From NCBI GenBank assembly GCA_001600695.1, contig BCKQ01000001.1, positions 1,418,826 through 1,482,825 of the forward strand: a stretch of DNA of 64,000 bases, given 5' to 3'. Below are positions 6,431-54,595 of the stretch, piece after piece. The stretch's first letter is position 1. The number at the start of each line of letters is the position of its first letter. The notes below the pieces were generated by a model that worked only from the letters and a program-made list of their open reading frames with translations, ran no database searches and had not been told where the DNA came from. The DNA is from Ascoidea asiatica JCM 7603. Taxonomy: Eukaryota; Fungi; Ascomycota. The position numbers and the translations under genes were made by a program.

Positions 6431-6574
6431 TAGACCTTAATAAACTGCAATAGAATAGAACAATGCAACAATCACTGGCCACTTAGAAATAAGCTTAATT
6501 CGAGCTCTCAAAAACTGAGATTAACGCAGTTTTGTGCCGAGCTTCAAAAGAGAAGAAAAGAAAAGAATCAAAGT

Positions 6575-6830
6575 GGTTAGCTATACAGCCCTGCATATGC
6601 ACAGCAGCCCTAGCTGGTTTCACCTGACCTCGTTTTGAAAGTGACTGGTCTTTCTGCTGTGGTTTTTCCTCTGTGGCAATTCCACGCTTTTCTCGAGTCT
6701 TTGCACGCACCGCCAGTTCAATTTCCAGCGCAGGCCGGATTTCCTTTTTTCCAACCCGGATTTCGCCCGTCCGGCGAGCTAGCTCAAGATTCCATCGCAG
6801 GCCTTTTTACTCTCTCTGACTGTAGTCAAT
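6575..6830 (+). promoter_or_regulatory. RPL7 upstream GC island with Tbf1-like AGCCCT sites and a Cbf1-like TCACCTGAC
   Basis: AGCCCT at 6587-6592 and 6606-6611; TCACCTGAC at 6620-6628; GC-rich relative to flanks. Confidence 0.5.
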
Positions 6831-6959
6831 CAATTATTCACCAAAAATATATCAATCAATTAGCATAATATGGTAATTATATATATATATAAAAAAAATT
6901 TAAAAGAACTTTAAGGTCAAGGCATTAATAGAATTAAAGAAAGTAAAAAAATAGCACAA

Positions 6960-11915: not shown

Positions 11916-11928
11916 GACAGTACGAAAT

Positions 11929-12204
11929 TGTAATAAGAAATTGTAATGAGAAAGAGAGAGAATGTAATGAGAGAGAATGTAATGAGAAAGAGAGACGAGA
12001 GAAGAGACGAGAGAAGAGAAGAGAGAAGAGAGAAGTGAGAGAAAGAGAGAGATTGTAATGAGAGAGAGAGAGAAAGAGAGAGGAGAGAAGAGAGAGGAGA
12101 GAGACTGAGAGAAAGAAAGAGAGAAGAGAGATTGTAATAAAGAAATTGTAATGAAGAGAGACTGTGAGAATGTAATGAGAGAATGTAATGAGAGAGAGAG
12201 AGAC

Positions 12205-12238
<34 letters not shown>

Positions 12239-12280
12239 GGAGAGAGAGAAAGAGAGAGTGTAATGAGAAAGAGAGAAGTG
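11929..12280. repeat. Polypurine (GA/GAA) low-complexity tract punctuated by about 10 TGTAAT(G/A)A units
   Basis: Read directly from the sequence. Confidence 0.9.
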
Positions 12281-12364
12281 AAGAACTGTTCAAAGTGAGA
12301 CTCGCACGTTTTGTTTCTTTCCCGTGTTTGTGTCTGTTGTTGGGAAGCAGTCAGGTGACCGCAC

Positions 12365-12372
12365 CACGTGAC
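12365..12372. promoter_or_regulatory. Cbf1-type site CACGTGAC upstream of SRP72
   Basis: CACGTGAC about 210 bp before the ATG, followed by TATATA and a (GAA)n tract at 12463-12520. Confidence 0.6.
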
Positions 12373-12578
12373 CAGTAGTATATATCAGTTGAAGTGATCA
12401 ACTTTTAAAGGACTTTTAAAGGACAGCCAGTTTAAACGAGATTCAAAAGAAGGTCTAACCACAGAAGAAGAAGAAGAAGAAGAAGAAGAGGAACAAGAAG
12501 AAGAAGAAGAACAAGAAGAACAAGCGCTGATAAGAGGAATACACAATACTTCAATCCATCAACTTATACTACAACACA

Positions 12579-17616: not shown

Positions 17617-19698
17617 ATGGCTAGAAAATCAGGTATAAAAATAATTGAATTCTTAAGAGGTCGTATTTACCTTGGTGCTTATGATAATACTCCTCAAGAT
17701 ACTGCAGAAACTGTCTTTTTCACTGTAGAAGATAATCTTCCATATAACTCATTTCATCTTGATTTTGGTCCTCTACATCTTGGAAATTTGTATAGATTTG
17801 CAGTTGTTCTTCATAATATATTAAATGAAGATTCAAATCAGGGAAAGGCAATTGTATTTTATTCCTCAACTACTTCTAAAGATAGAGCTAATGCTGCATG
17901 TTTGCTTTGTTGTTATATGATTTTAGTTCAATCTTGGTCTCCACATCAAGTATTACAACCTATAGCTCAAATTGATCCTCCATTAATGCCATTTAGAGAT
18001 GCAGGATATTCTCATGCTGATTTTGAAATATCAATTCAAGATATAGTTTATGGAGTTTGGAGAGCTAAAGAAAGAAATATGATTGATTTAACAAATTTTA
18101 ATCTTGAAGAATATGAACAATTTGAAAAAGTTGAAGAAGGTGATCTTAATGTAATTTCAAAAGATTTTATTGCTTTTGCTTCTCCGCAACAATCTAGACC
18201 TGGTGCTACTTTAAATAAACCTTTTACAAAAGTTTTAGATTTTTTCGTGAAAAATAATATTCAATTAGTTGTAAGATTAAACTCTCATTTATATGATAAA
18301 AGAGAATTTGAAAAAAAAGGAATTCAACATCTTGATATGATTTTTGATGATGGAACTTGTCCAACAATGGAAATTGTTCAAAATTTTATTGGTGTTGCAG
18401 AAGGTGTAATAGCTAATGGTGGCAAAATTGCTGTTCATTGTAAAGCAGGTTTAGGTAGAACTGGTTGTTTAATCGGTGCACATTTAATATATACACATGG
18501 TTTTACTGCAAATGAATGTATTGGTTATATGAGAATGATTCGTCCAGGAATGGTTGTTGGTCCACAGCAGCATTGGCTTTATTTACATCAAAATGATTTT
18601 AGAAATTGGAGATATACAATGGTACTTGATCCAAAACCTAAACAATCTTTGGGTGGATTTTCAACTTTAATTACTTATGAAGCTTTCAAAGCTAGACAGA
18701 GATCAATTAAAAAATCAATTGTAACTCCAGTTCGAAGAAGAGTTTCAACACAAATGAAAAAAAGTGTTTATACTGCGGTTCCTATGCAATCTCCTGGTCA
18801 ACCTCGTAAAGCTCCTGAAATTATTAATGGAATATCAAATAATTCTGATGATGAAGAAAATTATGATGAATATGATTCAAATATAATTGATCAAAATTCT
18901 GATCATAACGAAATATACAATGATAATAATAACAATATTAATAACAATAATAGCAATAATAATCATAATATTAATAATGATCATGAGTCCAATAATGGAA
19001 ATAATGAAGATAATACCAATAATGAAAATAATATTGATAACATAAACAATAGTAATAGTAATAATAATAAGAGTCCCAGAAATGTAGGAAATATAAATAA
19101 TGTTAATAATCATGATTCAAAAAATAAAAAAAAAGACTCATCTCCTCCTAATTCTGCATCAAAAATGACAAGTATAAATAAAGTTCATGCAAATGGAAAT
19201 AATAATAAATCTTTAAGAGATATAAGTGAAGAAAAAAATGATTTAATTAATCAAGATTATAATTCAAAATATAAAATTCAGGATACTCATAAAAATAATC
19301 AAAATAGTAATAATAATTCAAATGAATTCGATCATCTTCCTGAAGAATCTAAAGAAAATTTATTAGTGATGAATAATCCTCAAAGAGAAAAAAGATCACC
19401 TCCAACATCTTGGAGAGTTCTTCGTTCTATAACTAATCCAAATTCAAGAAGATCATCTTCCCCACCTTCTAAACCTACTCAGGTAGCACAATCTACAGGA
19501 AAAGTACTTCCATCTTCAACACAAATCCCAGGTTCTATCTCATCTTCGCCTGTCACAGATGGAAATCAAATTTTACCAAAATCTAGGCCTCGATCAATGG
19601 GTAGAACAAGAAATTCAATGATAACACAACAAGGTTCAACTGAGAAAGTGATCAATGGAGGAGGAATTAGAAAAACAAGTTCCTCAAAAAGAGGTTAA
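17617..19698 (+). CDS. CDC14: Dual-specificity phosphatase Cdc14
   Basis: IEFLRGRIYLGAY, FHLDFGPL, PFRDAGYS, catalytic AVHCKAGLGRTG, RPGMVVGPQQHWL, SPGQPRK. First ATG at 17617. A forkhead-like TTGTTTAC lies at 17361. Confidence 0.97.
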   Translation: MARKSGIKIIEFLRGRIYLGAYDNTPQDTAETVFFTVEDNLPYNSFHLDFGPLHLGNLYRFAVVLHNILNEDSNQGKAIVFYSSTTSKDRANAACLLCCYMILVQSWSPHQVLQPIAQIDPPLMPFRDAGYSHADFEISIQDIVYGVWRAKERNMIDLTNFNLEEYEQFEKVEEGDLNVISKDFIAFASPQQSRPGATLNKPFTKVLDFFVKNNIQLVVRLNSHLYDKREFEKKGIQHLDMIFDDGTCPTMEIVQNFIGVAEGVIANGGKIAVHCKAGLGRTGCLIGAHLIYTHGFTANECIGYMRMIRPGMVVGPQQHWLYLHQNDFRNWRYTMVLDPKPKQSLGGFSTLITYEAFKARQRSIKKSIVTPVRRRVSTQMKKSVYTAVPMQSPGQPRKAPEIINGISNNSDDEENYDEYDSNIIDQNSDHNEIYNDNNNNINNNNSNNNHNINNDHESNNGNNEDNTNNENNIDNINNSNSNNNKSPRNVGNINNVNNHDSKNKKKDSSPPNSASKMTSINKVHANGNNNKSLRDISEEKNDLINQDYNSKYKIQDTHKNNQNSNNNSNEFDHLPEESKENLLVMNNPQREKRSPPTSWRVLRSITNPNSRRSSSPPSKPTQVAQSTGKVLPSSTQIPGSISSSPVTDGNQILPKSRPRSMGRTRNSMITQQGSTEKVINGGGIRKTSSSKRG

Positions 19699-20225: not shown

Positions 20226-21090
<865 letters not shown>

Positions 21091-21199
21091 TTTGAACTAT
21101 TATTTCGATAATCTATTGTTTTCTATAACTCTAGTTGAATATCCAATTCTTGAAATAATATATTGAAATGCTTTTGTTGTATGACCTACCACTTTCAAT

Positions 21200-21440
21200 A
21201 TTATTCATGGTTTGCGATCGTTTGCAGAGAGACTGATTTGGTAAGCAAACACTGAGCTTCAGCAAACTTCCAACATCCATTCCAATCTTTTTCCTTGGTA
21301 ATTCAAAATACCCACACGTGCAGAGCATGTGCCAAATAATGAAACCAGTCCTGGAGGGCGAGCGTCTCACTTGAAAAATAAAGTGCCCTTACTGTAAACA
21401 CGTGTAGGGGTTTTGTTTTAAGAGCCCTTTGTGTGCTGTT
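21200..21440 (-). promoter_or_regulatory. RPL40 upstream GC island with two CACGTG and several GCCCT/AGGGC sites
   Basis: CACGTG 21315-21320 and 21399-21404; AGGGC 21355; GCCCTT 21385; AGCCCT 21423. Confidence 0.6.
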
Positions 21441-24400
21441 GTTATTAAAACAACCCAGAATAATAAGACTACTTTGGATTTAAGCCAATTTCCTTTAAAA
21501 ATTACCCTTTTTTGGAGTATTAGAGGAGATTACCACATAATGTTTCAACTTTTTTATCCACTTATCTTAAAATTTGGTATATTTATTCTTATATGATAAT
21601 CGAATGTTAAATAACTTGAAGAAAAGTGGTTTTTGTGGCAATAATCAAAACTAGTTTTGAAATTCTTTTCAAACTTTAGGTAATTCAATTTCAAGAAATA
21701 AGAAAAGTGCTCTTGATTCAATAAAAGCATAGTGGTTTTTATGAGCGTTATTTTTTGAAAAGTTATTGATTGGAGATTCACCCATTTACGTATTTAGCAG
21801 AATTTGAACTACTATTAAAATAAAGTATGAAATTGAAACTTCGAGTTTTAAATCTACATTGATATTATATGTAATAGAAATATTTCTGTTATAATTCTTT
21901 TTTGACTCCTTTTATCTTTGTGACCTAAATTCATATTTATTCTTCTTTAACTTAAATTGAATTTTTTTTCCAAAATACGTTTCTGTTATTTTTGAAAAGT
22001 TAGTTTCTCAAACTAATCTTATACTTTTGGATATATCAAAACTTGGTACTCTTTGATAACATTTTTAATCTTTTATTTTGTTGATATGGCTTAGTTGAAG
22101 TTGAATTTCTTTTTCTTTCCCAGACTTCAACAACCCAAAAAATAAAAGGATTTACATTTTCATGATGTCAATAAATGGTCATTTCTGAAATCGGAATTTA
22201 AGATTCTCAGATTTCTGCAGATCTCGTCTGCAGAGATTAGGTTTTGGTATAGAAGGCTTCCGTGCATTAAAATAATGCATAGAATACTTCCATGCATGTA
22301 CACACAGTAGTGGCTGTTTCCATATTGAATATTCGAAAATGAAACGTGGAATGGAAGGTTACAAAAAAAACAAGAATTTGGTAAAGATAATCAATTTCCA
22401 AAAACAAACAATTTTAGAATTCAATTCGCGATATAAAAATTAAAAATACAAAGTTATTCATCGAAAATCATTTTTATATCAAATAGATTATTTATTTCGA
22501 TAGGGAAACCTGATATTTATTCCAATTCGCTAAATTTTCTAAATACATAGTGACGTTCGATAACAACATACCTTTTAACAATTAGTGAAATATTAGGTTA
22601 TGATTAGATGATTTGAAAATAGTGTTAGTAGAAAAAGTTCTTACTAAAAAATCTTTTATTATAACTTACAAAAGGTTATTTCCTAAATAATATTTTCAGG
22701 GAAGAAATGGAGTGGCTTCAATGAGTTTTTTTTTAATTCGGTATCTTCAAAAGCAGCTATTCGTTATTGGTTTCAACTTTTATCTGAAGAAGCTAGTTGT
22801 CCTGGGATAGATTTGTTGTTTATATTCAATTGGTTTTCAAATATGTTAAATTTTTAATGAATTAAAAAAATGGTTTTTAGATTGTACCCACTACTAGAAT
22901 TCTATAATTATAATTGATGGTAGTTGTTGTAACGATTTAGTAAAAATTTTAACTTTATCAATATTTTCTATAATAAAAAAATATATTTTGAACCACTTTT
23001 TCTTCTTTGGTATCTTTTTTGAATATTCATTTCCCTTTGGGGTTCAAATTTAAATTCAACCAAGAAATTATTCACTTTTTTAAACTAGAAAATCAAATAA
23101 GAACTTTTGATTTTTGATACATTTGGGCGTATAGTACCTTTTTTAAAAAGTTAACTCTCATAATGTTATTCAATTATTTAACGAAATGAGGGGAATTGAA
23201 TTATATTTCCACGAAAAAAAAAAAAAATAGATATTTTCTTTATTTATTATTCATTAAAATTATCTTTGAGGTACAAAAAATTTATCAACTCCGAGAATAT
23301 TGGTAATTCAGTTTGTTTTAAAAAATAATTTTCTTATAATATTTTATAAAAAACTTGGATTTAAAACCTGTTTTAGAAAACAAAACAACTAATTGTAACA
23401 ATATTGTTGCAAAATCTTCTAAAAACAAAAATATATAAGAAAATCTTTTTCTAATAAATGAAGTAATAAGTGACGAGAATAAATAAAATCAAAAATTTTA
23501 AGAATTTAAAGAACTCTAAAGCATCTATTACTAGTATAAAATAATTATAGAAAAAGTATTATAGTAAAGTACAATATTATTAGAAACGTGAAAAAAAAAA
23601 AGTTAACTTGCCAAATATTCGATGTTTTTTTTGCATGTATCCTGCATCGTTCAGTTTTGCAAAAAAAGTACAACCAAATCCAAAACTATTTGTAAAGTTC
23701 ACTTTCAAATAAAATATTTTGGCCTGAAAAGGAACAATAGTAATGATAGAATAAATGTTCCCAATATATTAATCAAAAATATATATTTCATACGTCTCAA
23801 TTGGTAAAATCTTTGTTATTGTTCAAAAGAACCATATTACAATTATTATTATTCATAATTTTTGCTAAGAAATAGTGTTTTTAAGACAATTCTGAGTATT
23901 TGTATTAATAGTGATATTTTCACAGTTTTTGTAAATTTTTGTTCCGAAAACTTGGAGGTGAAAAAGTCTTTGCAAAGGTCAGAACACATCCAAAGCTACT
24001 CCTCAAAGAGGCTCAATTTGCAAATTAAGGCATTCGTAATTGAGATTTCACTGAATTCACTGCCAAAGTCCACAAATCACAAGTCAGGCTTGTCTTCTTT
24101 GGGACGGAAACAAAATAACGGGACAGACCAGCTCACCTGAAGTCAGGGTAACCAGAATTCAGTCCAGGAAGCTAGTGTCAAAGTTAATGTTAAGTTAACT
24201 TTTGTTTTTAAACAAATGTTGGTTACTTACACAACCTGGGTTACTGGGGTAGTCAGTCTGCATTACATAGAAGTGCATTTACACCGGTTTTAGGCAGTGC
24301 ATCACTTCTAACATAACGTTAACACATAGGGGTCAACGTACTGGAGGAGAGATAAAAAAAGCATCCACGCTCTTAGGCTCGTGGTTGGCTTCCATGAACA

Positions 24401-25620
24401 TTCGCAGACGTGGAGAATCTTTAAACACTTACAGACGTGGAGAAACCAGATTGTGCAGTGCTCTGCAAAGGTGGTGGGTGTAGCAAAAACTTATTATTTC
24501 GTATAGCCTGCAGTACTTCTGTGTATAGTTCTGAATTGAACTGTATTTATATGTTTTATTATGTGCTATACTGTATCTTCATATGCCATTACATTATCTA
24601 AGGTACTGTACTGTATAATTAACAATTCAATACAATTATAACTTATTGGTATGACAATACCACTTTGTTAAATACCTTCAAAAACAACATTAATTGAGGT
24701 AACCTGAATACTATGGTAGACAAGAAATGATAACAATCAAATTCATGAAAACATGTTACTCTTGTAAAGTTATTCACTTTCATTATCGAAAAGAATCACT
24801 ATTTCATCAAAATCACTCGAAGGAAAGAATATTGTATGTGGAAAGCTTAAAAAGGTTTAATTTTTCAAAAAAAAAAAAATCTGACAACATATAAATATGA
24901 ATAGTCTGCTTAAGAGAATATTCAGGATTTAAGAGCATAAATTTAGAGGAAAAGGCCTGAACAATGAATCCTTAATCGAATAAAGAAAATTTGGGGAAGC
25001 GATTCGTAGTGATTGTTTTCTTTCAAATTAGAATCAAATAATTGATAATAACGAAGTTATAACAAAGGTATGGTGATTCTAGATTGAAATAATGAATATT
25101 TTCTAAAGATTTCAAAAAAAAATAACAAGATATTTTATTCTTTTGCTTCTTAGAAAATTTTTGTTCCTTTTTTTTTTTAAGTGAATGGATCTCTTTTCAA
25201 AATTGAAAAAAAAACTATATCAAAATTATTGAAAAAAATTTTCCAGTAAATTTCTCCATTGATTCAAATATGATGGCGATATAAAAGAGGCTGTGATATG
25301 GGGAGATAAAAATTATATTTCTGGTTGAAAAGTAGATTATTTATCTTTGTATAATCTTAATAGGTTCAATAATTACCTTTTTTTATTAATTCTCCTCAGA
25401 AATATTTTCACTTGACATGAATAAACATTATTTATGAACTGATATTTATTCAAACAAATTTTTGTGGTTCAATCTACTTTTAAAATCAATTAACTTTAAA
25501 TCAAAAAAAAGAAATATTTATTATCAGTTGAAGGTGATCACAACGGGGCTTGTAGTCTTTAGATTTAGTTAAAGGGTTTTGCGAAAAATTTATTCAATTA
25601 ATGTTTTTCAAATTATCCTT

Positions 25621-25730
25621 AAAACTATTCTTGTAACTATTGTTATAACTATTGTTAAAAGTATTCCTGTAACTGCTGTTAAAACCGTTACTTAGACTGT
25701 TATAAAAACTGTTATTAAAACAGCTGTTTA
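25621..25730. repeat. Degenerate 12-bp tandem repeat (consensus near AACTATTGTTAT)
   Basis: About 9 imperfect units; the minus strand reads NNSF/NNSY-type tetrapeptides. Confidence 0.65.
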
Positions 25731-28700
25731 ATCTGATTTTGATTCAGAATCGAATAAGATAAGGGTTAAACGTTATGTAACAGATTTTTTTTTTCAAACA
25801 CAGCTCATTTTATATATCTATTGGGTGATATATTTTTGATTATGATGTGAATTTTATTAATTAACTCCTTAATGTTTTTAATAATTGTTTTATATGTTTT
25901 AAATTCTCTACTGTTATCGGTAGCCTGGAAGCGTTATAATAATACTGTTTTTCATGGGCTGAATATAATTATGTATCTAGATAACGATCCTTCTTTTGTT
26001 TGAATTTATTTTCTTATATTGAGAGTACTATTGTTGTATTAGTAATACTAATAATAGTAATTATACGTTATAAATGGTTGTAAAAAGATGTTGCAAAGTA
26101 AAGCTACAGAAATATTCAATTGAATCTTTCTTTGGAAGTAAGAAAATTATGCCCAATGATTTTTAGTTACAATAAAAATTCTAAAACCTCCTAAATTTTC
26201 AAAATTTTCTAAACCATTATTCAATATAAGGAATAATAGTAGTTATAATAAAATAATATAGTAATATAATACTTTTTTGAGAAAAAAGTAGTGAAGTTAG
26301 GGCAGTATTAAAACATAAAAAGACTCAAAGGTATTTTTTTTGCCTCAATAAAAAATAATTATTTTATTCTAATACTTTTTCAATACGAATTTACTTCAAT
26401 TTTTGAAAAATAGTATGCTAAACATGCAACGTGTGACCTCGCCTTTAATTAAGTTTATTACTGATAATTTTCATAATCATCTTGATAATTATTTTCATAA
26501 TTTATTTATTATCCTGATTTTTTCAAATAATATTAATAATAATAATGATGTTTTACACAAAGAAAAAAAATAAACGATAAAATTATTTACTATATTAAAA
26601 TCCAAACATAACTTATTCAAATGATAATTTTCCAGAGTAAATATAATTTGAAGTTATGGATTTTTATAAGGTTAAATAAAACTTATAATTTGATACTAAA
26701 TTTATTTTACAAAAAACTATTTTTTAATATTTTAATAATGAACCCTAGTCAAATAAATAGTTTAGTTATCAAAAAGTATTAGATAACTTATTCTAGTTAG
26801 GAGAATATCCATAAAGAGGTTATAAACTGAAAAAACTAAAGTAAAATTAACCGAGAATATTAGATATTAAAACTAATATATTTATGACTCTGAAAAGAAA
26901 CTAATAATCTACAATAACTTTATTAGTCTTATTGATATTAAATTAGATATGTAATTGCTATTCCATTATTTCCAAAGGATTTTTATTTTCTTTTTCATGA
27001 TTTTTCCTGTGAATAAATGACAAACATATATTTTGTGTTTCTGTTTTAAAGAATTCAAAAATGTTTTTTTTTTCAATTATTATAAAAGCATGATAAACAA
27101 AATCTTGAATATAATGCTTTAGAAAAGCTTCAATAATTCGGTTTGTTAACAGAACTTTGATAACTAAAAACTATAAGATTTTTGAGGTTTTTAAGAATGT
27201 TAAAGACAAAATAAAAAACCTTTTAGATTATCATAAAATCACAAGATTTGTTATTTATCTATATATTAGCATACATAGAAAGATTGAAATAAATAACTAA
27301 GCACTAAGCAAACCTACGAAAGTGTTAAATTAAAATAAACAGCCAGCTTTTGAATAAAAATGAATGCTCATTATCCAAGGTCAATTCACCACCCAATTCA
27401 GTTCTATTTATCATTTTGATTCAGCTCAAAACACACCTTTTTTTCAATCCGACACAGACTAGATTTGTTGGCTTTGGAATCCTCAGAGGTTTAGAGCAAA
27501 ACAACCTTTGGGTGGTGGTCTGGGTGTGGGCAATATTTCAATATTTTGGGACTACAATTGAGTCTAAAATAGATCCGAGAACAGTGCAGAGCTCGGTGTA
27601 TTATGTAAGCAAGCCTGGAATAATGGAACCTCTGCGTGCCCCCAAGGAAATCTGGCTAGGCTGTTTGAGGGCGCTTGTGGAGGCAAACATGCAGATAGCC
27701 AGCATCTCTACGTGTACACCACTGACAAAAAAGTAAAGTAATCAAACATGCTTCGCCGAAGAATTGTAAAACCAAGTCTAATTTTGCCGATCATCTCCGG
27801 GAATTATGTTTTTCCGTTCAATGTTAGAATTTACCAAAAACATCCCGTGGGCGTCACTGGTACTTGAACTCTAATGGCATTTGGTTCACTGTCGGGATTT
27901 GACTACGGTAAATAACCTATTATGGTATATTTTTAGGGTAAGCTTGTTGGTAATATAGGACAGTAGCTATCCTGGAATTATTTTCCTAGCTTTTTCAGCA
28001 ATATTATTTATTATTATTATTATATGATAATTTTATAGAAAGCAAACAAAATGAAAAGAAGTTTCAAAATCATTTGATTTGGTATAGTGGAAATTATAAT
28101 ATTGGACTTCTGTTGAGTGTTATCTTGATACAATCGTGAGATCTAAAAGGCCTTAGAATTAATTTATTCGATTCTTTTGTTTAATATTGCAGCAAAGTTT
28201 GAAACTTTTATTAAGACAGGTACTTAATTTTCCCCTGTATATTTGTAGTGTGTGTAGTGTAACTTACTATATTTCAATCTATACAGTTGCGGAGATTAAG
28301 AAATATCAAAATATATTAGCCTAGAAAAAAAAGATAAGATTATCTCTCTACAACTAGTACGAGTAGTTTAGTCACAATTAAAAAGTTAAAGGGCATATTT
28401 GTATCAAAAGTGAGATTTTTTGTAAAGTAAATTGAACAAAAGTCAGTATTCCAGTACTATTCAATCTTTTTTCTATTCCATATTTGAATAATGAAAACTT
28501 CTCGTAAAACTAGTTTTTTGTTCTAAAAGAAAAAAAATAGAATACTACTACTATCTTGAAAAGACATTTTAATTAAACTATTAGCAGGGCTCATTTTTCA
28601 AAGGCTTTGACAAAATAGACAAAGTATTAAAAGGATTAATTAAAACAACGATAGTTAAATTTGAAAGGTACTAAAGAACGCAATAAAATTCAGTTATGTT

Positions 28701-30919
28701 TTTCAGTGTAAAATGTTTGTCATTTTTTTTTTTTTTGGCTTTGGTGTAGATGAAAAAAATTATTGACCAATATTATTACGGTAAAAATTCTGTGGTATTT
28801 ATTGATTTTAGTTTACTCGGGATACCATTTTCAAACTATGCAGACACTGTTATATTCTGATACGTTCTTTTAAATTGAAATCAAATTACTGCTTGAATCT
28901 TATAATTGATAAAAAAAAAAAATATCCATTACCTAAGATTTTATTATTCATATATTATTATTCATCAATACTATAAAACACTATCATATCTTTTCTAATT
29001 AGCACTAAACATTTCTTTTGTATTATACTCTTACCCTGATTAAGCTTAAATGAGGAGAGGTTGACTTTAATTTAAATCTTTTTTTTTTTTTTTGGCCGAA
29101 TTTGAATAATGTTATCCTAACAAAGCAGCTAGGCTCTTTCGGATCAATTGAGAAGTAAAACGTAAAAAATAACGTTAACGTTAATTTTCATCACGCAGTA
29201 AAACAAACGCGTTCAAAATAAAAATTAGTCTTTAAGAAATTGTTCTCTTGCCGATTTTTTCTTCCAAATAAATTCATTAGAACGGCATATTCCGTTCTTA
29301 GAAGCGTTGCAATCTTTGAGCATTTGTGAAAGTGAATACTTTTTAAATTTCATTTCCCAAAATCGAGAAACCTTATCAGGGTCGTTCACATAAAGTACTA
29401 TATTGTATACTTATAGATTTACAGTGGGTAAATAGCAAAAATGTATGAGCAACTTCATATCTTGAATCTTGGAATAAGATTCTTTCTCTTGTACTGTGGT
29501 TTTACGTGTATACAACTTAGCCATGAAAATAAACAAAAAAGAACTAGTCTGCTATTCGCCTGTGCAATCAAAACATATGCAAAAATATGCTTACAAAGCT
29601 TTATTCACAGTATACTGCTGCACAACTGTGCAAAAGAGAAAACTCACCATGTACAAAAAACTATGTTTAATTAGAAAATTCTCCATCCAAATAAAAACTT
29701 GCACAAAGTTATTCATTTTATTACCGTGTACAAACTTTACCATCACCATATCCACACGTTCGTACACTGTTAACTTCCTTTTTTTTTTTTCTTTACTCTT
29801 TTCTTCTACTGAATGAATGTGGATGTGTACAAAATAGATTTTTGCAGTTTGAAACCGGAGAATACAGACAGCAGGAAAGCTGGACCTGTATAAAAGATGT
29901 CATTGGCAAAAATCCGTAGAAAACTTTCTTGTAACCTCAACAAAAATATATCGCAGAACTTGTGGACATCTACAAATACATAACTTTACATTAAATAAAC
30001 CTAATTAAAAACAAATCTCACACAAACAAACAAAAAGATAGAAGATAATGTATGAAGTGTACACACTTCCAAACACACTTTTGCGCAGAGCCAAATAGAA
30101 CAAATTTGAAAAAAGGGGCTTTGATTATCAAAAAGTATGTTTTTATTAAGTTAAGCTAGTTGCAACTCTAAACAAACCTAGCGATTTATTTTGGGTTACT
30201 ATCAATATTGTTGTTACATACTACTACGAATAGTACACTACACAACACTAGTAGTAATAATGATATCAAGATTCAGTATTAAAAAAACTACATAATATAC
30301 TAAATTTATGAGATAATTATTAAATTACAATTTAAAATACATACTTCTTGTGGTATACGTATGCACGTAAACTAAATATTAATTAATAAGTATTTAATAT
30401 CAATATAATATTATTTATGAGAGAATAACTTTTGGTATTATTCTGCAAGACCACGCACCGAAGAAACTTTCGCTAGATTCTATACTTTTACTGCTTGTAA
30501 CTTCGCAAATTGTTATTACTATTACTATTGCTTGAGTGGTAACTAAGCAATAAATTAGTAGAAATCTTCTTCCCTGCCATACGCGCAAAGCAAAAACACT
30601 CTCATTTTTAAAAAAATTGATCTCAATTATGAGCAAACAGTTTGAATATAAAAAACCTTGTTTTCCTCTCGAATTATTCTATTATTCTTTTTTTTGTTTT
30701 TTTATTATTTTTTATTATTTGGTTAATCAATTAATTTATTCAAATATAAATTATTATACAATTATAAATACTCTCTATATTAAGCATATTTTCAAATTAT
30801 ATTTTTTTCATTTTATATCATTATACTTTTTTTTCCTTATTATATATTCTATTTTTCAAAATTTCCTTATAAATATTCAACTTTATAAATTAGCTATATT
30901 ATACATTTTATAAAATCAA

Positions 30920-32767
30920 ATGCTGCAATTTTCTTCTTCAAATATTCCTCCATTTTTCGATTTTGATAATATGAATATAAATAACATGAGTTTAAACAAT
31001 TTCAATAATATAAATGGTGTTAATAATTTAAGGGTAAATACTCCAACTTTAAATTATGAGTCAATTAATTCTCCAAATCCTTCAGTTTCAACCAATACAA
31101 ATCAAAATTCAGATAATTTGAACATGAATTTAAATTTTGATCAATTTATAAAATCTGAACCTTGTAATACTCCTCCACTTCCTCCAAATCAAATGAATTC
31201 ATTATTAAATCCAAATATCTTTAATAATCAAATCAATAATCAACTTTTATTTCAAAATATTTCAAATGAACAATTTTCAAATTCTAATTATAATATGAAT
31301 GATGATAATAATAACAATAATAATAATAATAATAGTTTACTTAATCTTAACTTGAATGCTCAAGATGCTAAAAATCAATATATTAATATGATTGGTTTAC
31401 AACAACTTCAATCTCAATCACACCAACAACAACAACATTCACAACCTCCATTATTCAATTTAAACAATCAATTATTTCCACATTCAAATCAATCTTTATT
31501 ATATGGAGATTTTTTCATTTCACAACAATATCTTCATAATTCAGATCATTCTGATTTTGCTACAAGTACAACTTTAAATAATTTCTCTGATTTTCCAACT
31601 TCTCCTGCTTTAGATGATACAATTTCAACTAGAAGAACTAGCATTATCAGTGAACCTTCAACTATGTCAAGTATGCTGGGTTCTCCATTTTCTGTTTCTT
31701 CAAATGCTACTGCTATTACTGATATGAATATTACTCCTTATACTCATACTCCACAAAATAAATTATTTTTAGATCCTAATGTACAATTTCCTACAAATAA
31801 TTTCAATATTAATAATTATAATCTTAATCATAATATTAATCCAAATCTTAATCATAATCTTTTAAATATTAATTCAATTCAACAAAATGATCATACTCCA
31901 CTTATGAGTAAATATCCTTCAAGTAAATTTAGAGTTGTAAGAGGTGTTAGTTCTGGTGGTAGTGCAACAAGACCTCCAAGAAGTTCAAGAAGTCATTCTC
32001 ATGTTCGTTATATTCCAGTTTCATTAAATTTAGAAAATATTTCTGTTAAATCTTTATGTAATCCAGATTGGAATAAAGAAGAAAAACTTGATCAAAGAAG
32101 AATTATTAGAATTGAAAGAAGACAAAGTGGTTCAAAAATAACGGCAACTTTTTCAATTGTTGGATCTGCTAAAGAAAATCCAAAACCTAAACCCGCTTCA
32201 AGTGATTGTGAAGTTTTAGAAATTAGTTGTCTTGAATCTTTTAGTGATATAGATAATGGTAATAGTGCTGAAGGTAAAAAGAAAGCATATTATATTACTA
32301 GTGTTGAAGTTATTAAAATTGTTGAATTATTAATTAGTACTGAATTAAGTGATGCTGCTGAAAAAAGACGTGAAAGAGGTAGAATAAGATCTAATTTAGT
32401 ACCATTTTGGTCAAAAAAAATCTCAACAAGACCAACATCAAGATATACATCTCCAAATTGTAATTCTTCAAGTTCTGCTTCTAATTCAAGTTCAAGTTTA
32501 AGTCCAAAAGTGAAATGTAAAGAAGAATCTCCTGAAAGTTCAGGAATAAATTCAAGATCAAGTTCACCGATTTCAAGTTCAACAAAACCAATTGAAGAAT
32601 ATAAAGTTCTTTTAGCTAAAAGAATTATGGGATATGAAATTAGAAAACCAAGAGGTTTTGATAAAGAAGTTAGAATTTTACAATGGGAAAATCTTGAATT
32701 AGGTTTAAAAAGAGCATTACAAAGTTATTATGTTGAAATACCTTATAGTGAAAATATCAATTTTTAA
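30920..32767 (+). CDS. Medusa/MedA-like fungal developmental regulator (N/Q-rich N-terminus, conserved C-terminal domain)
   Basis: W..EE....RRIIRIERRQSGSKITATF, ISC, YYITSVEVIKIVELL, E..RERGRIRSNL, IMGYEIRKPRGFDKEVRILQWENLELGLKRALQSY. These parallel, in order, the MedA motifs as I recall them: W..EE...RRRIV.F.RSQSGS, ISCI, CYVTSVDTI.LLE.L, EEKNRIRRNL, IMAF..PKPRNIEKDVKVFPW..L..ALKKII.KY. Confidence 0.78.
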   Translation: MLQFSSSNIPPFFDFDNMNINNMSLNNFNNINGVNNLRVNTPTLNYESINSPNPSVSTNTNQNSDNLNMNLNFDQFIKSEPCNTPPLPPNQMNSLLNPNIFNNQINNQLLFQNISNEQFSNSNYNMNDDNNNNNNNNNSLLNLNLNAQDAKNQYINMIGLQQLQSQSHQQQQHSQPPLFNLNNQLFPHSNQSLLYGDFFISQQYLHNSDHSDFATSTTLNNFSDFPTSPALDDTISTRRTSIISEPSTMSSMLGSPFSVSSNATAITDMNITPYTHTPQNKLFLDPNVQFPTNNFNINNYNLNHNINPNLNHNLLNINSIQQNDHTPLMSKYPSSKFRVVRGVSSGGSATRPPRSSRSHSHVRYIPVSLNLENISVKSLCNPDWNKEEKLDQRRIIRIERRQSGSKITATFSIVGSAKENPKPKPASSDCEVLEISCLESFSDIDNGNSAEGKKKAYYITSVEVIKIVELLISTELSDAAEKRRERGRIRSNLVPFWSKKISTRPTSRYTSPNCNSSSSASNSSSSLSPKVKCKEESPESSGINSRSSSPISSSTKPIEEYKVLLAKRIMGYEIRKPRGFDKEVRILQWENLELGLKRALQSYYVEIPYSENINF

Positions 32768-33580: not shown

Positions 33581-34832
33581 AAGGTGTATACAATTCATTG
33601 ATGTTCAATGATTCCAATAGTGATGAATTTTGAGTATTCACCTATGGTATTATTTAAAAATACGAGAGAATTTAACATTACTTACTTCATTACATCTCAA
33701 AAGGTAAGTAACCAACTTACTTGTCTAGTGACTTGTATGAGCAATGAGAATATTACAGAATATTGTAGAAAATCAATTTGATAAAATTCTTTATGTTGGT
33801 GTTCACAAGTTAAAATAAAAATTTAAGCGAAATGAATGATTAATCACAATGTTATTCATAAGAAGTAATGAATGAAAATTTTTCATTTTATAGGGTATTC
33901 AAAAATGTTTTCAAAAGAGTTTTAAACAAGTAGTGACTGTGACTGTGGTATTCAAACTCTTTACACCTTTCACATTTTCATTATCAGAGAGATAAGAGAT
34001 GATACACACATGCTTATCGTAAACTGAAATAGAAGACAAAAGCAAATTATCAATGTGATATATTACAATGAGTGGTTTTATCATTTTCAGATCGTATTTG
34101 AATAAAAGCTAGCTAACAATTCCAATAAAGCAAATCAAACATCAAACAATTGAAGCAAACTACTCAAAGTAAACAATTCTAGGCGAATAATCGAACCGAA
34201 TAAATAAAGCAAATAACTCGAATAAAGCAAGTTTTGAAACGATGCTGAGGATTTGAGGGAACGAAAGATCCATTATTTTGCTCCTTTGTGCCGGTCCCAG
34301 GGGGCTTACACGGGTGTGGATAGACACAAATAGTGCCGAGGAGTGCATTTTGGTGGTAGCTGCCTCAATACGACAGGGGATTTTTATTCGTCAACTCTCT
34401 ATCTTTTAATTAGTGGAGAATAAAGAAAGAAGATTCAAGATTTAAATTCCAATATTATATTATTTATTGATCATTTATACTTATATTCGTGTTTATATCT
34501 ATTGATTGAGATTCACATTCATATTCTCAAATAATTTACGAAACAAACAAGTTTGCTTATTTGCAATTAAGTTCTCTGTCTTATTATTGAAGTTTGCTCA
34601 ATTGAATCAAATAAAATTGAAGTTCATAATGATTTCATTTTAACGTTTTATTACTTTTTTATATTGCAAATTTCATTTACAAGTACTTATCTATTTACGA
34701 GTTTACAAAATTGAATTGAATTAAAAGAAAAAAAAAAATTTTAAATTTGGTTAGAATATGTTTAATTATTGATTAGTTTTTGAATATTTGTGAATTTTTT
34801 ATTTTATTATTTTATCATTAGTTTTTATAGTT

Positions 34833-36305
34833 TCATTCGGATTGATGTGTAAGTACGCTATCCAATTCAAAACTATCATTATAATTATTATGATTATTAT
34901 GATTAATTTCATTATTTTCATTATTCTCATTATTTAGATTAGAGTTATTTAAAGATAAATATTGAGAATTTTCATAATCTTCTTTTGGAATACCAATTAA
35001 ATAAAGATAAAATTCTAATAAAGATAAAATCCAAAGATAAATTAAAAAAGCTGCGGATGTAATTACCATAATATATGCAGAATGATCAATATGAAATGAA
35101 TTAACTAATTTCAATTGCTCTTCATTTGCAGACATGAATAATAAACCAGATTCAACTAAACCAAAAGAAGGTAAATATTGAAATGATAAAATTTCATTTA
35201 AATATGATTTTTTATCTTTTAAAATAAATGAAATTTCTATAATTCTTGAAATTCCGGATAAAATTAAAGATAAACCAAAAAAAAAATGAATTTTTGTACT
35301 TAATTCTAATTTTTGAACATGAACACTCATTGCCCAACCTGTAAATATTAAAATTAATGAAGGTATAAAACTTCTTTTATTTTTTCTTGATAAAAAAATT
35401 CCAAGTAAACCACCAGACCACCAAATTATACCCATTGAAGTATGTTGAAAATCTGAATGACTCCAAGGTTCTTTACCCCATCTATGTTCAGTCCAAGTAT
35501 TTACAAAACCCCAAGCTGTGATAACAATTGAATCATAAAATTCTTGAGAATTTTTCTGATTTTTACCAGTTCTTAACCATGGTATAATTAAAATTATTGC
35601 CATTATTGAACCATATAAAATAAATGAACTACCCATTATACCATGAGCTAAACATTGTCCAGTATGAGAATCTCTACAAAAACCTAATAAAGCAATAGGA
35701 GCTAAACAAATTTTAACCCAACCTGTTAATAAAGTTAAAATTGATAAAATTTTATGTAAAATTATTAAATTTTTTTCAGTTGATTTAATATAAAAATTTT
35801 CAAAAATTTTATTTTTATTTAAAAAATTTGAACCATTTGATAAAGAACCTATAAAAGATGTTAAACATGATAAAATCATTAAAAACCATGCAGTTCCTCT
35901 TGAAGTTCTATTTTCAATATTATTTGAATCTGGAAATCTTAAAAAAATAGCTTCCAAGATTGAATAAATAGTTGAAATATATTGAATAAAAATAAAAGAA
36001 ATATGATAATTAGCTAATGAAAAAACCATTGAAATTGAAGGTAATATTAATAAAAAAAATAAAGATGCTAATAAATGAAACACTTTTGATCCAACATTTT
36101 TAGGATGAGAAGTATCTGAATCATTATCTGAACTCATATCCATACCCATATCCATATCCGAAATTGAATTTGAAATTGAATTAGGAATTGAAATTGCAGA
36201 AGAATCTGGGGATGCAGTAACTAAACAGCCAAGAAATAAGATGAGCAAATAACTCCACAAAAGTGAAGAATGCTTATTTTTAACAGGAAAAGGAATTGAA
36301 ATCAT
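34833..36305 (-). CDS. YTP1: Ytp1-family polytopic membrane protein
   Basis: Signal peptide, MDMGMDM, GQCLAHGIMGSSFILYG, SQEFYDS, NTWTEHRWG.EPWSHSDFQHTSMGIIWWSGGLLGIFL, FQYLPSFGLVESGLLFMSANEEQ. Confidence 0.88.
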   Translation of the reverse strand: MISIPFPVKNKHSSLLWSYLLILFLGCLVTASPDSSAISIPNSISNSISDMDMGMDMSSDNDSDTSHPKNVGSKVFHLLASLFFLLILPSISMVFSLANYHISFIFIQYISTIYSILEAIFLRFPDSNNIENRTSRGTAWFLMILSCLTSFIGSLSNGSNFLNKNKIFENFYIKSTEKNLIILHKILSILTLLTGWVKICLAPIALLGFCRDSHTGQCLAHGIMGSSFILYGSIMAIILIIPWLRTGKNQKNSQEFYDSIVITAWGFVNTWTEHRWGKEPWSHSDFQHTSMGIIWWSGGLLGIFLSRKNKRSFIPSLILIFTGWAMSVHVQKLELSTKIHFFFGLSLILSGISRIIEISFILKDKKSYLNEILSFQYLPSFGLVESGLLFMSANEEQLKLVNSFHIDHSAYIMVITSAAFLIYLWILSLLEFYLYLIGIPKEDYENSQYLSLNNSNLNNENNENNEINHNNHNNYNDSFELDSVLTHQSE

Positions 36306-38467
36306 TTCTAAAGATTATTATCAGTAACCAAGGAACAAAATAACTTTTTTCATTTAATAAACAATAATGAATAACCTAAAAAAAGAATTGAAATATATAA
36401 GAATATATTATTTTCTCAAGTCAATGATTAAATATATTAAACCCCATGAATAAATACAGTATATTAATACAATCAATGTAAATAAAGAGAAAATTGCCAG
36501 AATGCTGCTGAACCAAATTATTGTTAGGCTATTGCGGCTAGCTTTTTGCAATGCTGCACCTGAGACTAGCCAGTAACAATATTAGTGGTACTGTAACTGT
36601 TACTGGAGCTGGAGCTGGAGCTGAGTCTGGAACCATTTAAAAGTGCCGAGAGACCACATCCACGGGTCTCCTTTCATGGACTAATGAAAACAATTTTGAA
36701 ATATCGTTTTTAATGGGAATAGAAATGATAATCAGAAGAGTAAATGAGGATTGTAGTTGAAGGCGAAGAGTAATCAGTTGGATTTACTTCCAGGGATATA
36801 ATTCTAAAGTTCTTCTGTAAGTAATTATTTGAAGGTGGATACCCAAACACTCCTATGTTAATTGAATCAAAAGATGAAAACATTAAATAGCAAAATGATA
36901 AGTTTTAATGAATATAATGAAATTAATTTTTCATTATTAGTATTTATAAATAGTGAAGGATTCTAAGAAGTGAAACTTTTCAAAATAGAAAGTAAATAAC
37001 AAAATTAAAAATTACTTTTAAATTTGAAAAATTTTATTCATTGGAAAAAAATAGTTGATCTAATTGAGATGGACATATTTTTTGAAAATTTATTGCTTTT
37101 GAAATACTGATTTCTTTTACAGAATTTATTTTCTTAAAGAAATTATTTCTCAGATCTGAATAACTTAGAATATGAGCAAAGGATATTTTTATTTTTCCAT
37201 ATTCAAAATAGCTTTTTGAAAATTTCAGTATTCTGGTAAATTTTTAAATGATTAGATTAATTGCTGATTGTTGTTATTCTCCAAAATCAAATCTAACAAT
37301 ATGATTCTGAAAACACAAAACATGCAACTTCAAAAACTTCAATATATAATCACAATAATCAATATGCCATGAATAAGATTGTAATTTTTGCAATCTTTGA
37401 GAGTACAAAGTATTGATTTAATTTGAAAAAAAAGTTTGTGAGATTTGAAATAAACATATACCAATAAAATAGATATGTACAGTAAGTATGTTTATAAAAG
37501 TCTGGTGAATTCATATTTCCTGATTTGAAAACCAAAGTAAAGATTTACATATTTGACAATTTCATGAATCCAATTTGATGATAAACTATTGAACTTTGAA
37601 AATACTTAGGATTTAAATGATTTCTTTAATTATTATTTCCAGTTTGAAATGGAAAACTAATTTTAATTTGAATTTGAATTTATCATTAAAGAACTTTAAC
37701 ATTGGAAAATCTTTCATTCAAGTACCATTTGTATTTAAATCTGAATTCTTTTTGACAACACATTTTTTGTTAATCAGATTGATTTTTTCCAGAACACTGT
37801 AATGCTGTATCTTAAAATACTGCCCTCATCTCAGATGTAACTTTACAAAACTTTTCTAACCTGTCTATTAGTAGCAGCTGGTGAATTGTATTTGCAATCG
37901 CATTGCATTGGCAATTACAAATTGAATTAAATTCTCAAATAAATTCTTGGAGCCAAGACCCTTCTTCTGTCCCTTTGAATAATTTTTGTTCCCGAAAATG
38001 AGAAAAAAAGTATCCAGGTTCAAGTAATGCAAAACTGCTGCAAACCGCTTCTATTTGCATCTGCACTCTAAGTTTTATTCGAGTCGGATACTGTCTCAAA
38101 GAACGTAGAAAAACGCAGTAATTCTGTACACAGTCCCCAGGGGTGTCCATAGAAGGTTCCCAACCTAGGTGACCCAAATTGTTTGTTGTTTTCAGTTTGT
38201 AATATACCATATTGGTTTTGAGATTTAAAAATATCCCAGTGAGATTGAATATCAAAATTATACAGCTAATTTTAGTCAAATTTCCATTTTGGCTGTTCTT
38301 CTTGGTAAACCTAATAAACCCAAACGATGCCTTGAAAAAAAATATCAATATTAAAAACGTTTTGGACACTAAAACCAGGAATGTTAACATTGAAAATCAT
38401 TTAATGTAGATTTGGAAATACACCGTATTTGGAATGTGGCAAGTGAGAAATAGGACAGTGGCTAGTT

Positions 38468-38512
38468 CAGTGTACAGTGTACAGGTCAATGTACACTGTA
38501 CACTGTACACTG
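38468..38512. repeat. Perfect 16-bp inverted repeat built from 7-bp TGTACA(G/C) units
   Basis: CAGTGTACAGTGTACA (38468-38483), spacer GGTCAA, TGTACACTGTACACTG (38490-38505), then one further unit. Confidence 0.92.
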
Positions 38513-40365
38513 TGTATTTGTCCCCTTTCTGGAACCACAGTTCCATAGAAACCACTTCAAAGTCTGGTAAACCTTAACTTAATCCCTTTCTTGTGCTTCC
38601 AATTATCCGAACCCATGGATATTTAAATCCGTAAGTATGGGTTTGAGCCCTGGTAAGTTTTTGGGACAGAATTAATCACGGAAGTTCCTGTTGTAGATGC
38701 ATTGTTGTTGCTACAGTACTGCACTATACAGTTGGCTTCAAAGCTAAAACTTACCAAAAATAGCCATTTTCAAGTCTAGGCTACCCCGTGACTTGAACCC
38801 CCTTTTTGCCAATTTAGACCCCAATTTAGTCACGTATTTATTCGAGACCGGCCACTAGGGTCACCTCGTTTTACTTTTGACGCGTACCTTGTTCATTATT
38901 TCTTCTGTTTACATTTTTTTGTTTACATTTATCTACTTTGGGCTCTTTCGCGTCTGGAATGAGTTCGTCTAGCTTCAACTCTTATATTCTTTGCCTTGGC
39001 TCATTGAAATCTACCAATCTCCCAGCATGTTAACAAAACAACCCTGGAACTTCAGAGCTTTGACGAGTCGATGTAAAAGGAAAAGAAGCCAAATATAAAA
39101 AAACATTTATTCTTCATATTCTTCATTCATCATAATAACAACAATGATAATAATATAATTAACAAATAATAGTGAATATTCTTATTCATATTCTTTAATA
39201 ACTTCATTTATTTCAAGTTTCTCGTAAAAGTAATTATTATATCTTGTAAACTCACATTGTGAAAAAAGAATAAATAACAAAAAGCCAAAAAACCAGTAAT
39301 ACAAAATTTTAATAAAAAACCATGCTAGAACGAACATAAATAAATGTCATTTACTTATTCAATTCTGATACTTTTATTAACTAAGTTCAATAAAAATAAT
39401 CATTTATCTCGCCATTATTGATTTTTTGAATGTTATTTGACGTTGTTAGACTACAATAGTTATTCTTCTTTATATCTCAAACTTATACAACAATTATATT
39501 AATAATAATAACAATAATAATATATTTATAACATACATCATATCATATCATATCATTTCTTATATCTTACACTTCATATCATCGAAAAGAATTTAATTTA
39601 TTCTTTAATTTGATCTTTTCAATTACGTGTAATCATAAAACTAACCTCTTCTACAAATATAAATATTCAATTAATTAACCTATATTTTATTTTAATTTAT
39701 TTTCATTTCATTCAACTAATTAAATCTAATTATCTAAGATATTAAACATTTCTGAAATATATTACAATATATATTGTATATATATAAAATATAAATATCA
39801 ATATCAAATCAATATATAAATAAATAAAATATATAAAGCAGTAATATATCTATTACTTTTACGGTATCATTAAACTTCCAACATTAAACAGTTTATTCTT
39901 GTCATATTCGTTCCTATTCTCCCTTTAATTTCAATCAAATTTAATTACATTCAATACAGTCCAATTAAATTCAATTAAATCTGATAATCAATTTTATTTC
40001 TATTCAAAAAAATAAGAATTAAAAAAAAAAAATAAAGGAAATTATTAATCAACTCAAAGCAAATTAGAAAATTTAAAAATTTACTTAAGAAAATATTAAT
40101 TATCTTATTACTCATACTCAAAACAATAAAATTATTTTAAATTTTCCTTTTTTATCACTTACTTTAATAATAAAAAAAACTTTTTTTTAGGTCAAGTTCA
40201 TTTTCACTACTTCTTAAAGTTTAAAACACCACATCACTCACTTTTTTTTTTTTTTTTTTTTTTCACCCAAGAATTCATTAACTCTCTTTCTCTTTCACTT
40301 TCTATCTCTCTCTCTCATACTCTTCCTTTTATACTTTACTTGATTATTATTCTTTTATATATATA

Positions 40366-49223: not shown

Positions 49224-49259
<36 letters not shown>

Positions 49260-49479
49260 ATATTGGTTGTAAAGTTAAAGTATCAGATAATAATATTTTT
49301 GAATATAATTTTTTTTTAACTAAAGTTGAAATTCTCTTATTTGATACACATAAGTTACATAAAGATTCTTGATCTAAGAAATAAATGATTAAAATTATAA
49401 TATTAATTGGTAAATCATTTAATGAGTGAGGTAATGGAATTGAATTATAATCATGGATATATTTATCATTTTGAAGCAT
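46732..49479 (-). CDS. F-box protein, Asn/Leu-rich, with C-terminal Cys clusters
   Basis: SLNDLPINIIILIIYFLDQESLCNLCVSNKRISTLVKKKLYSKI is F-box-like; LRR-like segments; CNCLHC and CNC..HELD. First ATG at 49479. Confidence 0.8.
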
Positions 49480-49531
49480 TGGTTGTAATAAGAGATTAAT
49501 CAATTGAGGCTTCTTTGCTATCTAATCATCA

Positions 49532-49590
49532 GTCTCCAGTCTCCAGTCTCCAGTCTCCAGTCTCCAGTCTCTAGTCTCTAGTCTCTATAT
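49532..49590. repeat. (GTCTCCA/GTCTCTA)n 7-bp tandem repeat in the F-box 5' region
   Basis: About 8 copies. Confidence 0.88.
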
Positions 49591-49730
49591 CTCTGTCTTT
49601 GATATATTATGTATATCTCTATTGAATGTATTGTATCTATCACATTTATTATCATTCATAAACCTTTATTTATTTCATTTGATAATTTCTGTCTTCAGCG
49701 GTTATTCCATTTTTATCTGATCTAAAATTT

Positions 49731-54510: not shown

Positions 54511-54595
54511 AATTTCAATCATGATCCAATGAATGAATATGAAGAGAAGAGCATTAAAGGAATAATAAATAATAAATAATAAAATGATAATAAAT

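Follow-up and report, generated by a model that had tools for sequence, protein, structure and literature searches.

What is the protein encoded by a 615-residue open reading frame (ORF) of the budding yeast Ascoidea asiatica JCM 7603, and what is the role of the almost 10 kb of DNA upstream of it, in which no coding sequence is apparent? The locus lies on contig BCKQ01000001.1 (assembly GCA_001600695.1, positions 1,418,826 to 1,482,825 of the forward strand), and the 64 kb between these positions, referred to here as the window, were analyzed. The preliminary description of this DNA had proposed a divergent Medusa (MedA)-type developmental switch with a large multi-module promoter, retained in a mycelial yeast. 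We consider it reasonably probable that the product of the ORF at 30920-32767, which carries the Pfam domain DUF7082, is a nuclear regulator belonging to the MedA family, and that the 9.8 kb of ORF-free DNA is its predicted large multi-module control region.

The unusual feature of the locus is its spacing. Most of the 64 kb is tiled by ORFs of at least 100 residues in the ORF map, and the 23 gaps between them have a median length of about 629 bp, as worked out by hand from the ORF coordinates. The largest gap, 10,313 bp, is the one between RPL40 and the DUF7082 gene measured to exon 2 of RPL40, and the next largest is 2,065 bp. RPL40 forms the left edge of the gap; its exons, when joined, encode MQIFVKT, and the intron reads GTAAGT...TAG. 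Measured from start codon to start codon, the divergent intergenic region comes to 9,829 bp, and the DNA upstream of the DUF7082 gene exceeds the median gap length of the window by a factor of more than 10. Apart from RPL40, the ORF map contains no ATG-initiated ORF of at least 100 residues from the end of the Cdc14-like gene at 19698 to position 30920, and just two of at least 80 residues lie inside the gap. The analysis confirmed two earlier statements, namely that no credible coding sequence lies between the RPL40 promoter and 30920 and that most other gaps here measure 0.1-2 kb (median about 0.63 kb, next largest 2.07 kb). The non-trivial point is the length of the non-coding stretch; the missing ORFs are not informative, because long open frames are unexpected in any non-coding DNA of 24% GC.

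The 615-residue protein matched Pfam PF23305 (DUF7082) with 73.4 bits against a gathering cut-off of 27 (E 2.2e-20), in two stretches of which the best covers residues 378-503. No Pfam match to an STE domain was found in the protein at E<=1. The N-terminus rich in Asn and Gln that had been described was borne out by its composition (Table 1); residues 1-339 could not be aligned among relatives, and the alignment shows no conservation before an RGxSxGG motif. The conserved domain comprises residues 340-500 and 557-615, has an isoelectric point (pI) of 9.5 and is split by a 56-residue linker. Its first part contains the motifs RRIIRIERRQ, EISCLE, YYITSVEVIKIVELLI and ERGRIRSNLVPFWSKK, which occupy invariant or near-invariant alignment columns. 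Across alignments of 18, 16 and 134 sequences, the conserved columns form a bipartite core: W..E...RRI(I/V)R, (E/D)(V/I)SCL, ITS(V/I)EV and ER(G)RIRSNL..(F/L)W, and then R(K)P....K..R.L.W..L..A...A...Y.

An AlphaFold2 model of residues 340-615, built with the 134 aligned sequences, reached a mean confidence (predicted local distance difference test, pLDDT) of 82.9 and a predicted template-modelling score (pTM) of 0.78. The predicted fold consists of a six-stranded sheet with two helices, a disordered linker, and then two helices with short strands packed on the first part; in the model the two halves would fold together as one domain, with pLDDT above 90. Sequence searches of the Protein Data Bank (PDB), with the single protein and with a profile, gave no match, and Foldseek against the PDB found nothing at E<=1e-3 (best E 0.1). 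VIA-align, an exhaustive structure search, returned Z values that, on the tool's own scale, fall short of meaningful and lie within its common range. They were obtained with the Ski-like DHD (3eq5_A; Z 5.2, root-mean-square deviation (rmsd) 4.1, 97 aligned residues), the Dachshund DHD (1l8r_B; Z 4.8, rmsd 3.7, 95 aligned), the SMARCB1 N-terminal domain (6lth_M; Z 4.3, rmsd 3.4, 82 aligned), Bqt4 (6a6w_A; Z 3.8, rmsd 3.8, 96 aligned), Mbp1 (1bm8_A; Z 3.3, rmsd 3.3, 75 aligned) and Swi6 (Z 2.6, rmsd 3.9, 84 aligned). The theme common to the top matches is the winged-helix-like DNA-binding fold (DHD, SMARCB1, APSES), at a sequence identity of 5-16%. For the predicted domain this likeness is a hint of resemblance to such folds, not of membership in them.

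Relatives of the protein are numerous among budding yeasts. A length-limited, word-indexed search with residues 350-615 found 139 relatives at E<=1e-3; the statements that follow on relatives concern the best 120 of these. They are 36-50% identical over residues 350-615, and PF23305 was precomputed for all 120. The named ones are budding yeasts of the genera Candida, Scheffersomyces, Spathaspora, Debaryomyces, Babjeviella, Saccharomycopsis, Wickerhamomyces, Cyberlindnera, Kuraishia, Ogataea, Komagataella, Metschnikowia and Candidozyma, and no name from the Saccharomycetaceae is among them. A HMMER profile search of 1.84 billion proteins gave 373 representatives at E<=1e-3, the best 150 of which were listed; weaker relatives among the matches listed measure about 400 residues and keep the core motifs. 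The exact 615-residue protein is absent from a collection of 15 billion proteins, and because the best match there is just 50% identical, the organism has no close sequenced relative in that collection. Komagataella, Ogataea and Candidozyma are not known to be hyphal. The proposed retention in a mycelial yeast was not supported, as the family occurs in most non-Saccharomycetaceae yeast genera among the matches listed, including these three. Judged from sequence similarity, the gene is an ordinary member of a widespread yeast family and not a rare retention. Among the matches listed, Komagataella has several DUF7082 paralogues, and two of the four locus tags of K. phaffii (CHR2-0001 and chr4_0003) are numbered as if at chromosome ends; most other yeasts have one or a few named DUF7082 entries. 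A literature search for the term 'DUF7082' found no occurrence.

The link to MedA was approached through layout and orthology. In A. fumigatus MedA, according to Al Abdallah et al. (PMC3503810), residues 346-557 of 683 form a C-terminal domain that is conserved and basic and is needed for nuclear localization and function. According to the same text, the N-terminal half of MedA, ACON-3, Acr1, Ren1 and U. maydis Med1 is of low complexity, and the C-terminal domain that follows it is conserved and basic, measures about 210-270 residues and lacks a classical DNA-binding motif. The 615-residue protein has the same layout, with a low-complexity N-terminus and a basic C-terminal domain at a similar position in the protein. 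When compared by eye, the basic cluster KNRIRR of MedA, as given in that text, resembles GRIRSN of the yeast protein. According to Ojeda-Lopez et al. (PMC6231087), neither S. cerevisiae nor S. pombe has a MedA homologue. In the same study, the OrthoFinder orthogroup around A. nidulans MedA has exactly one entry from the Saccharomycotina, a C. albicans protein, next to entries from A. nidulans, A. fumigatus, N. crassa, M. grisea, U. maydis and C. neoformans (PMC6231087, mmc10, taken as the MedA orthogroup figure by its file number). For C. albicans, one DUF7082 cluster was present among the best 120 relatives. On these grounds DUF7082 likely corresponds to the domain conserved in the developmental regulator MedA, and the 615-residue protein very probably belongs to the MedA family. 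The preliminary description had called the C-terminal domain collinear with MedA motifs; a conserved fungal family now stands behind that domain, matched in Pfam as had been suggested for a check, and an orthogroup joins MedA to a C. albicans protein. Mfg1 was considered as the yeast MedA orthologue and rejected, as it corresponds to PtaB, a LIM-binding-type protein (PMC4631450).

The C. albicans orthologue is C1_01510W_A (XP_718161.2), with 46% identity over 98% of residues 350-615 (E 8.7e-60). Its architecture is the same, a long low-complexity N-terminus and a bipartite C-terminal domain, but it measures 717-733 residues instead of 615, and its N-terminus is rich in Q where that of A. asiatica is rich in N. 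The neighbors also differ: an OM14-like gene and a manganese superoxide dismutase gene in C. albicans, RPL40 and a YTP1-like gene here. C1_01510W may correspond to 'ORF19.3337', a biofilm target reported by Nobile et al. 2012. According to the Candida Genome Database description, C1_01510W is a gene of unknown function whose promoter is bound by Bcr1, Efg1, Ndt80 and Rob1 (PMC12510648). It is induced by fluconazole and the Pseudomonas quorum signal C12AHL (PMC7211000), and it appears in a table of a Crz1 RNA-seq study (PMC6942403). These data fit a much-regulated target and argue against a master morphogenetic switch, at least in C. albicans.

Upstream lengths at other DUF7082 loci were measured on five loci from a metagenome scan (L001-L005), one of which (L003) was too short to measure. 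Two of them, L002 and L005, are both C. albicans; the L002 protein is 98% identical to XP_718161.2, and L002 and L005 are 98-99% identical to each other. In L002, 7.38 kb separate the OM14-like gene (800-1402) from the DUF7082 start codon at 8786, and these 7.38 kb hold just one ORF of at least 100 residues, which measures 120 residues (152 in L005) and has no Pfam match. The two contigs differ here by an indel or a repeat-length change (L002 5051-5991, L005 5254-5998), with the ORF going from 120 to 152 residues. In L001, 2.2 kb lie between an aquaporin-type ORF and a 666-residue DUF7082 ORF, and L004 has 1.9-2.8 kb upstream of its DUF7082 ORF. The upstream region thus exceeds 7 kb in two of the four measurable species and is moderately long in the other two. 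The one mildly new point is that the orthologue of a distant yeast also lies behind upstream DNA of exceptional length.

Long control regions are known from other fungal genes, among them FLO11 and UME6. In PMC2924316, WOR1 is described with about 6 kb of upstream DNA that is bound and with a 5' untranslated region (UTR) of 2 kb, and for the stretches between genes that Wor1 binds the median is 3,390 bp, compared with 623 bp over the whole genome, a five-fold difference. The DUF7082 locus resembles such regions in an upstream length far above the norm (9,829 bp, where the gaps of the window have a median of about 629 bp), in a gene that is a putative regulator, and in discrete candidate islands. 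Upstream binding and a long 5' UTR are documented for WOR1; for DUF7082 genes, binding is reported at the promoter of the C. albicans orthologue.

The candidate islands are two distal stretches of raised GC inside the gap, whose coordinates are listed in Table 1 together with those of a proximal zone. The window has a GC content of 24.4%, and coding DNA (23.2%) is poorer in GC than non-coding DNA (25.8%), which is unusual. Sharp intergenic islands of 38-60% GC also occur at 6451-6900, 11701-12550, 21201-21500, 36451-36800, 38401-39050, 49651-50150, 53951-54900 and 57251-57450. By hand count, 7 of the 13 other intergenic regions with a promoter contain an island of at least 38% GC, as does 1 of the 6 convergent regions. 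The sequence CACGTG occurs six times in the window, against 0.64 expected from shuffles, and all six sites lie in islands adjoining genes. Short motifs stand in tandem at the islands 49651-50150 and 53951-54550, as is typical of factor-binding clusters. Because of this occurrence in promoter regions, the placement of CACGTG and the tandem motif clusters, the islands were read as promoter modules or modules of the upstream activating sequence (UAS) type. Distal island 1 itself holds a tandem (A/G)CAGACGTGGAGAA pair, 27 bp apart, at 24404-24417 and 24431-24444 (two matches against 0.11 expected).

Table 1. Positions of the DUF7082 gene, its parts, its upstream region and the adjoining genes in the window
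Feature	Position	Strand	Basis or remark
ORF of 615 residues, DUF7082 (likely MedA-family) protein	30920..32767	+	ORF map, PF23305, relatives
Residues 1-339, N/Q/S-rich low-complexity N-terminus	30920..31936	+	23% N, 8% Q, pI 4.95
Residues 340-500, larger first domain part	31937..32419	+	predicted beta-sheet and two helices; pLDDT mostly 84-98, one loop dip to 69
Residues 501-556, Ser-rich linker (41% S)	32420..32587	+	predicted disordered, pLDDT 46-64; length varies among relatives
Residues 557-615, second domain part	32588..32764	+	two predicted helices and short strands packing on part one; motif RKPRGFDKEVRILQWENL..LKRALQSYY
Divergent intergenic region, RPL40 ATG to DUF7082 ATG	21091..30919	.	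9,829 bp; ORF map, Pfam, ARAGORN, Rfam
GC island upstream of RPL40	21201..21500	.	39% GC; CACGTG at 21315-21320 and 21399-21404; read as RPL40 promoter
Distal GC island 1	23951..24550	.	600 bp, 41% GC against 24% in the window
Distal GC island 2	27351..27950	.	600 bp, 41% GC, peak 48%; holds the 135-codon frame
Proximal zone of mildly raised GC (about 31%)	29000..30200	.	candidate core promoter or leader of the DUF7082 gene
Very T-rich stretch of 12-17% GC directly 5' of the ATG	30600..30919	+	GC profile
RPL40 (ubiquitin-L40 fusion)	20226..21090	-	exon 1 21083-21090, intron 20605-21082, exon 2 20226-20604
Cdc14-type phosphatase gene	17617-19698		Pfam
YTP1-like gene	34833-36305		Pfam

Under the reading of a MedA-family regulator with a large control region, the parts of the locus would act together as follows. 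The basic bipartite C-terminal domain (pI 9.5) would serve nuclear entry and contact with DNA or chromatin, by analogy with A. fumigatus MedA, whose equivalent domain is needed for localization and function, and the Asn/Gln-rich N-terminus may act as an activation or interaction region. Several transcription factors would bind at platforms formed by the distal islands (24.0-24.5 kb and 27.4-27.9 kb) and the proximal zone (29-30.2 kb), and with such platforms the gene would be a target or node under heavy regulation instead of a housekeeping gene. The far end of the control region would be shared with the RPL40 promoter. A stronger version, which we regard as tentative and rather doubtful, is that DUF7082/MedA proteins might be sequence-specific DNA binders of a winged-helix or APSES-like type. 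In that version the yeast gene would be an ancient, heavily wired node, its enhancer-like upstream region of several kilobases would have been kept from the Candida lineage to this distant, AT-rich yeast, and the two GC islands would be distal enhancers that lie several kilobases away from the start codon.

Several observations weigh against the reading as a MedA-family regulator with a large control region, or against parts of it. The C1_01510W deletion mutant of C. albicans, the one yeast mutant reported, did not differ from the wild type in filamentation, adhesion, biofilm, stress resistance or virulence (PMC12510648, Tables 1 and 2), and its sole phenotype is resistance to an EntV peptide (PMC12510648). 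The normal mutant counts against a conserved developmental role, and the developmental switch of the preliminary description was not supported. In filamentous fungi and smuts, MedA proteins govern the patterning of conidiophores, adhesion or mating, and these structures are absent from budding yeast. Named MedA proteins were not among the matches listed in three homology searches, so that the equation of PF23305 with the MedA domain draws on indirect evidence, from the Pfam family and the orthogroup. Among proteins of 631-2000 residues, 16 matches were found at E<=1, the named ones all from Candida or Lodderomyces; among proteins of 1078-3075 residues there was no match; and of 10 distant representatives from the profile search, the two that were named are both yeasts. 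The matches of the predicted model to DNA-binding-domain folds are weak (Z 3.3-5.2). With regard to the gap, no sequence conservation could be demonstrated: its DNA similarity to the upstream regions of four DUF7082 loci was at chance level only (best 46 nt at 76%, E 0.004), which is the expected outcome at such divergence. Upstream length is not uniform either, in view of the roughly 2.2 kb of L001 and the 1.9-2.8 kb of L004. The link between islands and promoters (7 of 13 against 1 of 6) is suggestive, being weak and not statistically firm, and the distal islands 1 and 2 contain no CACGTG. An island of 39% GC at 34151-34450 lies in a convergent region, flanked by the stop codons of the DUF7082 and YTP1-like genes. 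A promoter is not expected there, and just a 62-residue ORF overlaps the island.

The strongest rival is that the gap carries unannotated transcription units, such as long non-coding RNAs, a divergent structural RNA (for example, telomerase RNA) or very short protein genes, with the islands as their promoters or bodies. The islands do resemble the promoter islands adjoining other genes of the window, and many long intergenic regions of C. albicans were found by Tuch et al. to hold unannotated transcripts and long UTRs (PMC2924316). The searches made for such units were negative. Rfam gave no match at the gathering score over the window and none at E<=1 over 21000-31000, although Rfam is limited to described families and a divergent yeast RNA could be missed, and ARAGORN found no tRNA in the window. 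Islands 1 and 2 fold no better than shuffles on either strand (z 0.22 and -1.42 for island 1, 0.84 and 0.18 for island 2), which argues against structured RNA genes at the islands; unstructured transcripts remain compatible with these values. Among the stop-to-stop frames of at least 60 residues in 21.4-30.9 kb, 0 of 20 reached the Pfam cut-off, with three sub-threshold matches at chance level, and no canonically ordered GTATGT...TACTAAC intron pair is present in the gap on either strand. We rate this explanation as unlikely, though deserving of serious attention. Such transcripts would also be compatible with a control region, as they could themselves regulate the DUF7082 gene.

Improbable, in our estimation, is the explanation that the gap is decayed or neutral DNA (dead genes, debris of mobile elements or simple expansion) and that the real promoter is confined to the last 1 kb or so. 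It is favored by the lack of demonstrable conservation, by the two relatives that manage with 2-3 kb upstream, and by the longest frame of the gap, 135 codons at 27329-27736, read from stop to stop with no early ATG, which could be the relic of a coding exon in island 2. This frame, however, had no Pfam match and no usable match in an Atlas protein search, the other gap frames of at least 60 residues had no Pfam match either, and direct, inverted and tandem repeat searches found nothing notable in the gap, neither repeat families nor tandem arrays. Compact yeast genomes, with a median gap of about 0.63 kb in this window, would rarely keep 10 kb of inert DNA, and the C. albicans locus independently keeps 7.4 kb. 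Ranked last, and very improbable, is a regional centromere (CENP-A chromatin) that forms or lies within the gap, its adjacency to the DUF7082 gene being coincidental; in Candida-type yeasts, centromeres occupy ORF-free regions of unusual length. The gap is by far the longest ORF-free stretch in the 64 kb, ordinary genes flank it on both sides, and regional centromeres are not known to carry an obligatory sequence signature. The prior is low, with one centromere per chromosome, and the long upstream region recurs at the C. albicans orthologue, where it is factor-bound according to the database description. No long inverted repeats were found (best arms 53 nt at 72%); Pfam detected no retroelement domains in gap frames of at least 60 residues; and GC in the gap ranges from 15 to 48%, with no distinct AT trough clearly below background. 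These hallmarks are seen in some yeasts, and epigenetic centromeres can do without them.

MedA-type regulators drive development, adhesion and virulence in molds, and their mode of action is obscure, with no DNA-binding motif found. The leads obtained here are a family kept by most non-Saccharomycetaceae budding yeasts, a compact basic domain predicted with confidence, and a long upstream region in two distant yeasts, and they point to easy yeast systems for the biochemistry of the domain and for regulatory logic. For the window itself, the outcome amounts mainly to a neat annotation of a DUF7082 gene and its probable large control region, and to no new kind of element.

The surroundings of the locus are ordinary. 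Housekeeping genes flank it on both sides, including those for an ABC1 kinase, SRP72 and a GINS subunit (Pfam). A 147-residue ORF at 49751-50194 has no Pfam match and sits in an island of 46% GC (49651-50194, peak 56%) that contains a tandem duplication of about 41 bp, with CACGTG in each copy, followed by CT-rich tracts; this ORF is probably a promoter and not a gene. Nearby, at 49530-49590 and just upstream of the gene at 46732-49479, a 7-bp unit (CAGTCTC or TAGTCTC) is arrayed in tandem in about eight copies. The island at 53951-54550, between the RPC82 gene and the next gene, reaches 59.5% GC. It carries one CACGTG, repeats of units that contain GTGGC, and three or four (A)ACAGGAAA(T/C)CTG units in tandem; Rfam gave no match that overlaps it at E<=10. 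Upstream of the RPL7-type ORF at 7990-8442, a GTATGT at 7019 and a TACTAAC at 7375 agree with a canonical intron at the 5' end and with a short first exon, which is missing from the ORF list.

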